Positions 9,114 to 12,276 of a DNA stretch of 14,915 nucleotides are shown here, piece by piece (positions within the stretch are counted from its first letter, which is position 1; the number at the start of each line of letters is the position of its first letter). Under the pieces are notes generated by a model, which was not told where the DNA came from, did not search any database, and saw nothing but the letters and a program-made list of their open reading frames with translations. The stretch covers positions 1 through 14,915 of the forward strand of contig JAGCEZ010000052.1 of the NCBI GenBank assembly GCA_017650365.1, given 5' to 3'. This DNA is from Fibrobacterales bacterium. GTDB taxonomy: Bacteria > Fibrobacterota > Fibrobacteria > Fibrobacterales > CADBQJ01. The translations under genes were made by a program, and so were the position numbers.

Positions 9114-9134
9114 GGCTTTCCTTCCCGACTTCCC

Positions 9135-9150
9135 CCAGCGCCGCGAGCAC
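9135..9150. repeat. Left copy of a 16-bp imperfect direct repeat CCAG(C/G)GCCGCGAGCAC, a candidate att or duplicated yhcC 3' end
   Basis: CCAGCGCCGCGAGCAC at 9135-9150 matches CCAGGGCCGCGAGCAC at 11380-11395 at 15 of 16 positions. The pair brackets the low-GC island. On the minus strand the left copy encodes ...VLAALGEVGK, which resembles the yhcC C-terminus ...VLAALEETGRF. Confidence 0.4.
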
Positions 9151-9161
9151 AAGGCGGCCTG

Positions 9162-9350
9162 TCAAGAGCTGCACGCCCGGATAAGCCCTATGATGGCAAT
9201 GCACAGGACAAGGCAGCCCAGCGCGCTTTCCTTGGCGCTTTCCTTGGCCACTTGTTTTTCGGTTTTGGAGTCGCAGTATGGGCATTGCGCCGCATCGACT
9301 GGGACGGGCGCGCCGCAATGAGAGCAGGTGCTCGTTTTTTCTCCCGACAT
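9162..9350 (-). CDS. Small zinc-ribbon membrane protein (62 aa): N-terminal C-x2-C-x10-C-x2-C ribbon plus a C-terminal TM anchor
   Basis: ATG at 9350 gives MSGEKTSTCSHCGAPVPVDAAQCPYCDSKTEKQVAKESAKESALGCLVLCIAIIGLIRACSS. Codon usage is low-GC, as in the neighbouring island genes. It is transcribed divergently from the SPFH gene. The six-frame ORF extends to 9542, but only the part from the MSGEK ATG looks coding. Confidence 0.55.
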   Translation of the reverse strand: MSGEKTSTCSHCGAPVPVDAAQCPYCDSKTEKQVAKESAKESALGCLVLCIAIIGLIRACSS

Positions 9351-9379
9351 CGTCTTTCTCTTGAAAAAGTTCGTCGCTC

Positions 9380-9415
9380 TTGACGGATGTAAAAAAAACG
9401 CACATATTGTGCAAG
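9380..9415 (+). promoter_or_regulatory. Putative sigma70-type promoter (TTGACG-17-CATATT) with an overlapping GCACA-N3-TGTGC inverted repeat; drives the SPFH gene
   Basis: An AT-rich 97-bp divergent intergenic region. TTGACG is followed after 17 nt by CATATT, about 40 nt upstream of the ATG at 9448. The palindrome GCACATATTGTGC overlaps the -10 element. Confidence 0.35.
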
Positions 9416-9447
9416 GGGAATTTTCAAAAAACACCGGAGCGCGCGAA

Positions 9448-10653
9448 ATGGCCATTTTGGACGTCGTCAAGTTCGAATCGTCAGCCGACATATTGGCCTG
9501 GAAATTTCCCAAAAGCAAACTGACCACGAAAACGACGCTCATCGTGGCCGAATCGCAGGAAGCGATCTTTTTCAGGAACGGTCAGGCGCTGGACACGTTC
9601 GGTCCCGGCCGGTATCAGCTGACCACCGACAACCTTCCCCTTCTCCAGGGACTGGTCAACCTGCCCACGGGCGGCAAGGCGCCGTTTTCCGCGGAGGTGT
9701 GGTTCGTCAACAAGGCCTACAGCCTCAACATCCTGTGGGGCACGAGCACTCCCATCCAGCTGCAGGACCCCAAGTACGGCGTCTTTGTTCCGGTTCGCGC
9801 CTTCGGCCAGTTCGGCGTTCGGGTGGACGACGTCAAGAAGTTTCTGATCAAGCTGGTGGGAACGCTTCGTTTGTTCGACACCAAGACGCTGACCGGCTAC
9901 TTCAAAGGCTTCTACCTGACCCATGCGAAGACGATGATCTCGAAGTGCCTGGTGGAGCAGAAAATCCCGGTGCTCGAGATCAACGCCAACCTGCTCGCCC
10001 TTTCGGAGTCGCTCAAGTCGCAATTGCAGGGGGTCTTCGACGAATACGGCATCACGCTTGCGTCGTTCATGTTGAACTCCATCTCGGTGCCCGACGACGA
10101 TCCCGGCGTTCAGAGACTCAAGGCCGCGTTGGCCAAGAAGGCCGAGATGAGCGTCCTGGGATACGACTACCGCACCGAACGCAGCTTCGACACGATGGAA
10201 CAAGCGGCCTCGAACAAGGGGGTCGGAGCCGGACTGATGGACGCCGGGGTGGGGCTGGGCATGGGGCTCGGACTCGGAGGGCCCTTGGGCAAACTGATGG
10301 GCCAGGTGGCGTCGCAGCTGCAAACGCAGCCGCCGGCTTCCGCGTCGTCATCGGAAGCGACGATTACCTGCGACAAGTGCGGCGCCTCGTATCCGAAGGG
10401 AAGCAGGTTCTGCCCCAACTGCGGAGACGCGTTCAATCCCTGCCCCAAGTGCGGCGCCGACATGCCCGAGGGGAAACCCTGTCCCAAATGCGGCTTCGTG
10501 CCGAAAAAATGCCCCAATTGCGGGGCAACGCTTGCAGATGGCGTCAAGTTCTGTCCGGAATGCGGATCCGCCACTGTCAAGAAGTGTTCCGCCTGCGGAA
10601 CGGAATTGGCTCCCGGAGCCAAGTTCTGTCCTGAATGCGGCGCCAAAGCCTAA
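9448..10653 (+). CDS. SPFH/Band-7 family protein (Band_7_1, COG4260-type) with four tandem C-terminal zinc ribbons
   Basis: 401 aa. The N-terminus MAILDVVKFESSADILAWKFP...LIVAESQEAIFFRNGQALDTFGPGRYQLTTDNLPLL matches the conserved start of the PF13421/YdjI-like SPFH family. Then a Gly/Met-rich linker. The C-terminus carries 8 CxxCG motifs, which form 4 C-x2-C-x9-11-C-x2-C ribbons. Codon usage is low-GC and differs from the flanking genes. Confidence 0.85.
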   Translation: MAILDVVKFESSADILAWKFPKSKLTTKTTLIVAESQEAIFFRNGQALDTFGPGRYQLTTDNLPLLQGLVNLPTGGKAPFSAEVWFVNKAYSLNILWGTSTPIQLQDPKYGVFVPVRAFGQFGVRVDDVKKFLIKLVGTLRLFDTKTLTGYFKGFYLTHAKTMISKCLVEQKIPVLEINANLLALSESLKSQLQGVFDEYGITLASFMLNSISVPDDDPGVQRLKAALAKKAEMSVLGYDYRTERSFDTMEQAASNKGVGAGLMDAGVGLGMGLGLGGPLGKLMGQVASQLQTQPPASASSSEATITCDKCGASYPKGSRFCPNCGDAFNPCPKCGADMPEGKPCPKCGFVPKKCPNCGATLADGVKFCPECGSATVKKCSACGTELAPGAKFCPECGAKA

Positions 10654-10679
10654 GCTCATGCAACCATAGAGAGGAAGAA

Positions 10680-11354
10680 ATGTCATCCAAAGTCGTCACT
10701 CTGATTTGCGGGTGGGCCTTTGCTGCTCTTGTGGTCGCGGTAATGCTTCTGCTTGGCCATGACCAGACCGGCGGAAACATTCCCGTCGTTTACAAGACCG
10801 CATGCGCCTGCGTTTCCTTGGCAATCCTCGTGGGAACCCACTTGGCCGCGTTCTCGGGAGGGCATCCCAAACGCATAGCGACGGTGGTTCTCTGGGTCGC
10901 GCTATTGCTCTTTACGGCGGTTTACTCCACGTTCACGATGATGTCCGACGAACCCCGCCTGGTCGCCTACATCGCGGTCAATCTATTGACTTTTGGCGCC
11001 GTTTCCGTTTTGAGCTTCGTTCTTTGGAGTTCCGCTACACGCGGCGATGCAAGCCAGCGAGCCTGTTTCGAGACCAAACGGGCGATGCTCCGAAGCCGCA
11101 TCGTGGCAGACGCCATGTGTCATGGCGCCGCCGGCGTCAAGTACGCCGAACAGCTTCGGACTCTTGCCGAAAACCTTCGCTTCCAGGACGATTCGGCGAC
11201 TGTCGAACAAGACGAACAGATTTTGGATCGCCTAAACGACTTGTCGGAGCACCTTGCCGAAGAAGGTTATCCTGTCCAGGAACGCATCGACGAGATAGAC
11301 GACCTCGTCAAACAGCGCAACTTCGCGGTGAAGTCGCTGAAAAGCCTTCATTAG
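10680..11354 (+). CDS. Integral membrane protein (4 TM) with a C-terminal cytoplasmic acidic/coiled-coil domain; unknown function
   Basis: 224 aa. GAGGAAG Shine-Dalgarno 5 nt upstream of the ATG at 10680. Four hydrophobic helices within residues 5-116, then a charged helical tail (…EQDEQILDRLNDLSEHLAEEGYPVQERIDEIDDLVKQ…). Low-GC codon usage, as in the SPFH gene 26 nt upstream. Confidence 0.7.
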   Translation: MSSKVVTLICGWAFAALVVAVMLLLGHDQTGGNIPVVYKTACACVSLAILVGTHLAAFSGGHPKRIATVVLWVALLLFTAVYSTFTMMSDEPRLVAYIAVNLLTFGAVSVLSFVLWSSATRGDASQRACFETKRAMLRSRIVADAMCHGAAGVKYAEQLRTLAENLRFQDDSATVEQDEQILDRLNDLSEHLAEEGYPVQERIDEIDDLVKQRNFAVKSLKSLH

Positions 11355-11358
11355 CCCG

Positions 11359-12276
11359 TCAAAACCGACCGGTCTCCTCCAGGGCCGCGAGCACGGCCCG
11401 GACGATGGCGTTCCGGTCGCCGCTCCACGCGGGCGCGAGGAGCATGTCCGACGGGGTCTCGCCCGAGACGCGCTCCACCGCGGTCGAGCGCGGGAGGATG
11501 GACGCGAACTCCGCGACCCCGCGCGCGTACTCCTCCAGGGTCGGGAGCGCGAACTCGCCTCGTTCCCACTCCTCCGCCAGCCGCGTCCCCTTCACGACGT
11601 GGAGCGGGTGGATCTTGACGCTCTCCACGGGGTGCGCGGCCAGAAAACGCGCCGTCGTTTTCCAGTCTTCGGGCGTCTCTCCGGGCAGTCCGAGGATGAC
11701 GTGCGCCGCGAGGGAGACGCGCGGGTTCTTCGCGGGAGTCCCGTCGCGGAAAAGAGCCCGGGCGTCCGCCCACTCCGCGGCGGTGTGGCCGCGCCCGATC
11801 CGCGCCAGCGTCCGGTCGTTCGCGCTCTGCAGCCCGAGCTCCAGGACGATTGGCTTGCGTTCCGCCAGCTCCTCGAGCAGGTCGCGCACGCCCTCGTCCA
11901 CGCAGTCCGGGCGCGTGCCGATCGCGAGGCCGTCCACGCGCTCGTCGGCGAGGATCGATTCGTAGACCGCGCGGAGCCTTTCGGGCGCGCCGTAGGTGTT
12001 GGACCAGGGCTGCAGGTAGGCGAGGACCCCTGCGTCGGGGCGTTTCGCCTTCAGGCGCGCGATCCCCTCGTCGAGCTGCTCGGCGACGCTCTTCCGCGTC
12101 CCCGCCACGGGCGAGAAGGAGCGGTTGTCGCAGTAGGAGCAGCCGCCCGTCCCGCGCGTCCCGTCGAGGTTCGGGCAGCGGAAGCCGGCGTCGAGGACGA
12201 CCTTCCGCGTCTCCTTCCTCCCGGGAAAGAGTTCGCGCAGGAAGGAGGCGTAGCTCTTGAACGGGAGTCCGCTCAT
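11359..12276 (-). CDS. yhcC: Radical SAM protein, TIGR01212 (YhcC) family
   Basis: 305 aa. Motif KVVLDAGFRCPNLDGTRGTGGCSYCDN, with Cys residues in YhcC-family arrangement. The start overlaps the manC stop (ATGA). Confidence 0.88.
   Translation of the reverse strand: MSGLPFKSYASFLRELFPGRKETRKVVLDAGFRCPNLDGTRGTGGCSYCDNRSFSPVAGTRKSVAEQLDEGIARLKAKRPDAGVLAYLQPWSNTYGAPERLRAVYESILADERVDGLAIGTRPDCVDEGVRDLLEELAERKPIVLELGLQSANDRTLARIGRGHTAAEWADARALFRDGTPAKNPRVSLAAHVILGLPGETPEDWKTTARFLAAHPVESVKIHPLHVVKGTRLAEEWERGEFALPTLEEYARGVAEFASILPRSTAVERVSGETPSDMLLAPAWSGDRNAIVRAVLAALEETGRF
11380..11395. repeat. Right copy of the 16-bp imperfect direct repeat (inside the yhcC 3' end)
   Basis: CCAGGGCCGCGAGCAC lies inside the last codons of yhcC (…VLAALEE…). 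See the left copy at 9135-9150. Confidence 0.4.

Follow-up and report, generated by a model that had tools for sequence, protein, structure and literature searches.

A horizontally acquired locus encoding a Band_7_1 SPFH protein with tandem zinc ribbons and an undescribed membrane partner in Fibrobacterales

The window analysed here, a stretch of 14,915 nucleotides of a Fibrobacterales contig (GenBank JAGCEZ010000052.1), contains at positions 9162–11354 a small locus for an SPFH protein, a zinc-ribbon protein, and a membrane protein. The three open reading frames (ORFs) proposed in the first-pass annotation of this DNA are all intact: a gene for a 62-aa zinc-ribbon protein on the minus strand (9162–9350, with its ATG at 9350), a gene for a soluble SPFH protein of 401 aa on the plus strand (9448–10653), and a gene for a 224-aa protein with four hydrophobic segments and a helical C-terminal domain, also on the plus strand (10680–11354). 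In the NCBI record (MBO7500426–431), the second is annotated as ‘SPFH domain-containing protein’ and the third as ‘hypothetical protein’; the 62-aa gene is unannotated, the protein numbering being consecutive from ExbD to the SPFH protein. NCBIfam gave no meaningful match for the window proteins. The three genes lie in an inserted island of lower G+C (2,244 bp; 9151–11394), which also provides a new 3′ end for the adjoining radical S-adenosylmethionine (SAM) gene. By sequence comparison, the locus is a Band_7_1 SPFH–zinc-ribbon system whose membrane partner is different and undescribed, and which has neither PspA nor a TPM-domain protein.

The SPFH protein matched Band_7_1 (PF13421) in Pfam with an E-value of 2.2e-46 (158.6 bits against a cut-off of 24; profile positions 2–198 of 211), and carries four C-terminal ribbons, as the first-pass annotation had read it. 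The Band_7_1 domain (residues 18–217; nt 9499–10098) is followed by helices to about residue 254 and a Gly/Met-rich region (residues 247–303; nt ~10186–10356). In the AlphaFold2 (AF2) model, the predicted local distance difference test (pLDDT) score is ~80–88 in the core and below 50 in the Gly/Met-rich region, which is read as a flexible linker; the zinc ribbons beyond it would form a flexible tail. These ribbons (C308–C325, C332–C348, C355–C372, and C380–C397; nt 10369–10422, 10441–10491, 10510–10563, and 10585–10638) have the spacing C-x2-C-x10/9/10/10-C-x2-C and appear in Pfam as four Zn_Ribbon_1 stretches, all 16 of their cysteines being invariant among 44 homologues. The top Foldseek matches of the model were stomatin, prohibitin, HflK/C, flotillin, and QmcA (E, 3e-9 to 1e-5), with a probability of 1.00 against the PDB and target-normalised TM-scores of up to 0.75 for isolated SPFH domains; the protein thus combines the α/β fold of SPFH proteins with a Band_7_1 score above threshold. 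When the SPFH profile was searched against PDB sequences, only zinc ribbons matched, and no solved Band_7_1 structure was found. By hydropathy, the SPFH protein is devoid of any hydrophobic segment and the 224-aa partner has four. Full-length homologues number in the thousands at ~50–55% identity, and most of them have five ribbons, the first of which is missing from the window protein. In the NCBI record, the SPFH gene begins with GTG 9328 (441 aa), so that it overlaps the 62-aa gene and the promoter (9328–9447). Because all homologues have MAI… N-termini that agree with ATG 9448, the true start probably lies downstream of the deposited one.

The gene of the 224-aa partner starts 26 nt past the SPFH stop codon and has its own ribosome-binding site (GAGAGGAAG). 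Its hydrophobic segments span residues ~5–27, 36–58, 64–88, and 94–118 (nt ~10692–11033), and the C-terminal domain (nt ~11034–11351) is all-helical in an AF2 model of low confidence (pLDDT, 61; predicted TM-score, 0.37). With HPKR after the second segment and an Arg/Lys-rich stretch after the fourth, the charge distribution fits an N-in/C-in topology, and the helical domain is therefore presumably cytoplasmic. No consistent Pfam match was obtained among 45 members of the family. In an exhaustive search of representative sequences, the family comprised at least 658 representatives at 50% clustering (E ≤ 1e-3), with lengths tightly confined to 220–240 aa. Its conserved positions are a Glu in the second transmembrane (TM) segment (89% of 62 members), which is the most conserved transmembrane residue of the family, a YSD-like motif, Leu188, and Arg213. 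In the window partner, His54 (nt 10839–10841) takes the place of this Glu, and the same His is found in its Fibrobacterales relatives. The family was assembled by local phmmer and hmmsearch runs on fetched loci together with the exhaustive representative search. A word-indexed protein search with the 224-aa query had yielded only 6 close relatives, and one with a 45-sequence profile only 11 members, its candidates being saturated by TM-like words.

The gene neighbourhood was surveyed in 80 genomes (Clostridia, Paenibacillus and relatives, metagenome-assembled genomes of termite-gut Deltaproteobacteria, Synergistaceae, and others; mostly Bacillota), whose ORFs were searched locally; with the window and its eight same-lineage contigs, the set amounts to 89 loci. 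A partner homologue adjoins the SPFH gene on the same strand in 70 of the 80 genomes, which belong to several phyla. It usually lies directly downstream of the SPFH gene and occasionally upstream or on both sides, and the median gap is 14 bp among the 72 loci with a partner within 5 kb. Searches starting from the partner lead back to Band_7_1 neighbours. Moreover, a membrane protein with a C-x2-C…C-x2-C zinc ribbon is encoded within 2.5 kb in 74 of the 80 genomes, in three architectures: two TM segments, a winged helix-turn-helix (wHTH)-like region, and a C-terminal ribbon (~190–250 aa; 56 loci, often duplicated); an N-terminal ribbon with a TM2 domain (~130 aa; on the upstream side and divergent, in the 10 closest relatives); and a YdjG-like form of 415–750 aa in eight deltaproteobacterial loci (jackhmmer, 1e-36 to 1e-43). 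The first-pass expectation that both partners would be conserved neighbours thus holds for the 224-aa protein and for a zinc-ribbon membrane protein in general, and fails for the 62-aa form. The core of the operon type is a gene pair, a Band_7_1 SPFH gene (with linker and tandem ribbons) followed by that of a dedicated four-TM partner, to which the zinc-ribbon membrane protein is added as a variable third component.

PspA, sought by jackhmmer with a query of the B. subtilis type, was encoded within 8 kb in only 1 of the 89 loci, where it lies 5.6 kb off with four opposite-strand genes between and is not in the operon; TPM proteins, sought with YdjH, were found in 0 of 89. In the window itself, none of the genes called on the contig matched PF04012, and jackhmmer found no match among the ORFs. 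The lack of a PspA gene noted at first pass is thus real, but it is typical of this SPFH subfamily rather than peculiar to the locus. Judged from these neighbourhoods, the operon type was without PspA ancestrally, and the gene was not lost locally. The operon type was not described in the literature found on Band_7_1/PF13421/COG4260 or on SPFH proteins with zinc ribbons, TM2 domains, or anti-phage functions.

Two variants of this arrangement were observed. In four loci (L042, L086, L107, and L108), a second partner paralogue lies directly upstream of the SPFH gene and is preceded by a 65–70-aa ribbon-helix-helix (RHH)-like gene, giving an extended operon of RHH, partner paralogue, SPFH, partner, and two zinc-ribbon membrane genes. 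The 20-kb rumen plasmid pNP21 of Butyrivibrio fibrisolvens (L106, 5001–6950) carries a two-ribbon, more distant Band_7_1 gene, followed by that of a protein with the C-terminal motifs of the partner; a 330-bp gap suggests either a disrupted gene or an annotated partner start that lies too far downstream. The plasmid copy adjoins a restriction-modification (R-M) S subunit gene, a recombinase gene, and a YoeB/RelB pair.

The 62-aa protein has one C-x2-C-x10-C-x2-C ribbon (C9–C26; nt 9273–9326) and a hydrophobic C-terminal tail of 15–18 residues (within residues 43–60; nt 9171–9224). Its ribbon spacing is the same as that of the SPFH protein, as had been pointed out at first pass (x10 versus x10, x9, x10, and x10). 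In Pfam, it scored 29.1 bits for DZR (cut-off, 27.3) and 24.3 bits for Zn_Ribbon_1, slightly below the cut-off of 25. The ribbon is homologous to the N-terminal C-x2-CGAP…CxYC ribbon of the divergent neighbours of the closest relatives, which are proteins of 127–154 aa with a zinc ribbon and a TM2 domain. It matched the 146-aa protein of this kind in the related island L101 with an E-value of 8e-11 (16 of 32 residues identical), with no match beyond the ribbon, and gave weak phmmer matches to the upstream proteins of L009, L010, L016, L018–L020, L024, and L077. The TM2 domain (PF05154) itself was detected in the neighbours of L009 (E, 1.3e-17) and, weakly, of L101; the 62-aa protein had no Pfam match to it. 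The exact 62-aa sequence was not found in a collection of 15 billion proteins, and gene finders miss the gene, whose ribosome-binding site is weak. A 12-nt tandem duplication within the gene (9225–9248; GCGCTTTCCTTG twice) gives rise to the repeated AKES-AKES of the linker that joins ribbon and hydrophobic tail. Truncation of the gene by the island boundary was considered and rejected, as the full-length gene of L101 also ends near the left boundary repeat; the short form more likely arose by internal loss or replacement. The 62-aa gene may or may not be functional.

A divergent spacer of 97 bp (9351–9447) separates this gene from the SPFH gene and contains a σ70-like promoter for the SPFH operon on the plus strand (TTGACG-17-CATATT, 9380–9408; one site in a promoter scan against 0.4 expected), as the first-pass annotation had proposed. 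The promoter is kept in the 88%-identical relatives, and its block is ~86% identical in L091 and L101, while the adjoining small gene has diverged. A palindrome (GCACA-TAT-TGTGC, 9399–9413) overlaps the −10 hexamer of this promoter. Since related islands (L101, L107, and L108) carry small HTH_3 or RHH genes, the palindrome is possibly an operator; the island of the window itself lacks a regulator gene.

The island has a G+C content of 0.57–0.64 across its region versus 0.68–0.72 in the flanks. It is bounded by two copies of a 20-nt direct repeat (18 of 20 identical; spacing, 2244), which corresponds to the 3′-terminal coding sequence of the radical-SAM gene (11359–12276, minus strand; TIGR01212). 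The left copy (9131–9150; TCCCCCAGCGCCGCGAGCAC) is the leftover native 3′ end of this gene and marks the left island edge, and the right copy (11375–11394; TCCTCCAGGGCCGCGAGCAC) is now part of its 3′ coding end. In the contig L094, the corresponding site is empty: exbD directly abuts the radical-SAM gene, the ExbB protein is identical to that of the window, and the window is identical to L094 up to 9150. Alignment of the two places the junctions at 9150/9151 and at ~11394; the radical-SAM protein is 305 aa long in the window and 311 aa at the empty site. Because this empty site exists, the island is an insertion and was acquired horizontally, as had been surmised at first pass from its context. 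The relative L101, with 88%-identical proteins, has at the same place a 4.1-kb island with the full-length gene for the 146-aa zinc-ribbon TM2 protein, the SPFH gene, the partner gene, and two lipoprotein genes, with an HTH_3 gene just beyond its left edge and a remnant of the radical-SAM 3′ end again at its left (L101 604–650). No integrase or transposase is encoded in either the 2.2-kb or the 4.1-kb island. Insertions seem to recur at the 3′ end of the TIGR01212 radical-SAM gene: both islands are flanked by a duplicated piece of it, and the empty site occurs within the same population. The two L101 lipoprotein genes (L101 3203–4717), located 3′ of the partner gene, are paralogous and internally repeated, have no counterpart in the window, and encode proteins without a Pfam match, whose lengths are 319 and 175 aa in the ORF list and 316 and 150 aa in the gene calls.

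Both core genes are under purifying selection, as the ratio of nonsynonymous to synonymous substitution rates (dN/dS) is ~0.2. Between Fibrobacterales lineages, it is 0.22 for the SPFH gene and 0.20 for the partner gene against L101, and 0.17 for the partner gene against L103. An identical SPFH protein was found on contigs from eight different samples, and its 90%-identity cluster contains 14 sequences.

Taken together, we regard the locus, with moderate confidence, as a horizontally acquired, PspA-independent SPFH membrane module belonging to a conserved, uncharacterised operon type. Its membrane docking, oligomerisation, topology, and physiological role are inferred as follows. The four-TM partner would dock the SPFH protein on the inner side of the membrane, because the SPFH protein has no membrane segment of its own, the partner has a presumed C-in topology, and the soluble YdjI of B. 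subtilis needs YdjG/YdjH to form membrane foci (PMC8581546). Ribbon-to-ribbon contacts with the zinc-ribbon membrane protein possibly add to the docking. Once docked, the SPFH protein may oligomerise like other SPFH proteins and scaffold or restrain its membrane partners. By analogy with SamI (YdjI), which restrains SamGH in a phenotype for which PspA is dispensable (bioRxiv 10.64898/2026.02.06.704340), the module could act as an envelope-stress or membrane-homeostasis device with other partners than SamG and SamH and with no requirement for PspA.

Several points weigh against this reading. The operon type is known from sequence only; AF2 modelled the partner poorly, so that its cytoplasmic domain and topology come from hydropathy and charge; and a PspA gene may lie elsewhere in the genome, its absence holding for the window contig. 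In addition, the window copy is off the family norm, having four ribbons, His54, and a zinc-ribbon protein without the TM2 domain, and may be partly degenerate or work differently. It is a reduced, trimmed version of the family, and serves as a pointer to it rather than as its best representative.

The finding at the family level should be useful for research on SPFH proteins and on the phage shock protein (PSP) response. The YdjGHI/SamGHI system of B. subtilis is the only Band_7_1 system studied and has been interpreted through its link to PspA; the locus in the window is part of a much larger operon type, spread over several phyla, without PspA or a TPM partner. It lends support to a recently proposed idea, that regulation of membrane partners by soluble SPFH proteins does not depend on PspA, and it defines a partner family with conserved residues amenable to testing (the Glu of the second TM segment, the YSD motif, and Arg213).

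A mobile conflict system, in which the four-TM protein would be a membrane-damaging effector (anti-phage, abortive-infection, or toxin-antitoxin-like) kept in check by the SPFH assembly until a trigger arrives, is unlikely but compatible with several features. Presence of the island varies within one population; the rumen-plasmid copy sits by an R-M S subunit gene and YoeB/RelB, and copies also occur by TnpV/HTH genes; some loci have linked small RHH or HTH regulators; the Glu in the second TM segment is strongly conserved; and in B. subtilis, SamI loss unleashes a harmful SamGH activity (bioRxiv 10.64898/2026.02.06.704340). However, none of the three proteins matched any family of PADLOC-DB 2.0 at E ≤ 1, so that the phage-defence role considered at first pass is not borne out; matches in PHROGs cover the ribbons only. 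Defence genes do not recur among the conserved neighbour clusters of the 80 loci, the module is near-absent from phage genomes (two weak records in a phage collection), and the window copy has His in place of the conserved Glu. A more specific version, which we likewise consider improbable, is that an SPFH cage holds a potentially ion-conducting four-TM protein inactive through this Glu until envelope damage or infection, the whole being a mobile, self-contained membrane-effector system. If true, such an SPFH-gated effector would represent a new class of stress or abortive-infection switch spreading in gut and rumen anaerobes.

It is still less probable that the locus is a decaying passenger, that is, a trimmed remnant of a larger island functionless in this host. 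Relative to its kin, the window copy has lost the first SPFH ribbon, the TM2 domain of the zinc-ribbon protein, the two lipoprotein genes, the HTH gene, and the Glu of the partner, and its 62-aa gene is poorly equipped for translation and escapes the gene finders. Nevertheless, both core ORFs are intact, the dN/dS of ~0.2 holds over three Fibrobacterales lineages, the promoter is conserved, and the SPFH protein recurs unchanged in the eight samples and has 14 sequences in its 90%-identity cluster. Decay is thus contradicted for the core pair by dN/dS; for the 62-aa gene, it is plausible.

That the locus is an orthologous YdjGHI/SamGHI operon having merely lost pspA, with the 62-aa, 224-aa, and SPFH proteins standing for YdjG, YdjH, and YdjI, respectively, is very improbable and already largely refuted: the SPFH protein shares the Pfam family and layout of YdjI, and true YdjG-like proteins occur beside this SPFH subfamily in the eight deltaproteobacterial loci, but the 224-aa family has no detectable relation to the TPM-domain YdjH, the 62-aa protein no significant similarity to YdjG, and PspA absence appears ancestral. 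The comparison was made with a B. subtilis-type pspA-ydjGHI locus (L090) recovered from metagenomes via the published ydjI primer (PMC8581546). Its proteins are PspA (PspA_IM30), YdjG (Zn_Ribbon_TF; 341 aa, with two ribbons, a large domain, and a C-terminal TM segment), YdjH (TPM_phosphatase, E 3e-23, with a TM region), and YdjI (Band_7_1 and one ribbon), domain assignments that agree with those of Ravi et al. 2024 (PMC11237479), in which the TPM-domain membrane protein is named as the conserved PspA partner. The window SPFH protein is 21% identical to this YdjI (E, 4e-19) over the SPFH domain, the Gly/Met-rich linker, and the ribbon. The 224-aa protein showed no similarity to YdjH (BLASTP E, 34; hhalign probability of the family profile, 0.3%; no TPM match in Pfam), and the best match of the 62-aa protein to YdjG was not significant (E, 0.23). 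Thus, among four testable defining features of YdjGHI, three (PspA, a TPM-domain YdjH, and YdjG) are absent by these comparisons and the SPFH–ribbon protein is present. Because the 224-aa protein is unlike YdjH, the 62-aa protein unlike YdjG, and the SPFH protein so distant from YdjI, the resemblance is architectural and confined to the SPFH protein, and the ydjGHI-like trio named at first pass does not stand as homology.

The preferred reading, a PspA-independent SPFH membrane module, can be set against three known arrangements. In common with YdjGHI/SamGHI, it has a soluble Band_7_1 SPFH protein in which a Gly/Met-rich linker leads to zinc-ribbon sequence at the C-terminus, and the membrane proteins encoded beside it include one with a cytoplasmic zinc ribbon; in both systems, the SPFH protein is likely recruited by these membrane partners and in turn regulates them. 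The two differ in the number of SPFH ribbons (four in the window versus one in YdjI), in the membrane partner (a four-TM, helical protein with no Pfam model versus the TPM-domain YdjH), in the zinc-ribbon protein (62 aa with one ribbon versus the 341-aa YdjG with two ribbons and an NTF2-like domain), and in pspA, which is missing from the operon both in the window and in 88 of the 89 loci.

The second arrangement is the operon type with five-ribbon SPFH proteins in Clostridia, Paenibacillus, and termite-gut Deltaproteobacteria, whose products are likewise annotated as ‘SPFH domain-containing protein’ and ‘hypothetical protein’. The SPFH proteins are 44–55% identical to that of the window by tblastn and 53–58% identical in MAFFT alignments, over the full length, and a homologous 224-aa partner (phmmer, down to 1e-28; profile, 1e-36 to 1e-65) occupies the same position and orientation. 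In this type, zinc-ribbon proteins with two TM segments and a wHTH are encoded downstream, whereas the 62-aa zinc-ribbon gene of the window is upstream and divergent; the window copy further differs by its four ribbons, the His replacing the Glu of the second TM segment, and its setting as a 2.2-kb insertion in Fibrobacterales.

Finally, compared with the SPFH–NfeD systems (QmcA–YbbJ, and FloA/FloT with NfeD-type proteins) and HflK/C–FtsH, the window SPFH protein lacks a TM anchor and a long coiled-coil wall, no protease gene is linked to it, and no NfeD or OB-fold match was obtained in Pfam for the 224-aa protein or 44 homologues. The locus nonetheless resembles these systems in pairing an SPFH gene with that of a dedicated membrane partner, and its predicted SPFH fold matches that of these cage-forming proteins.

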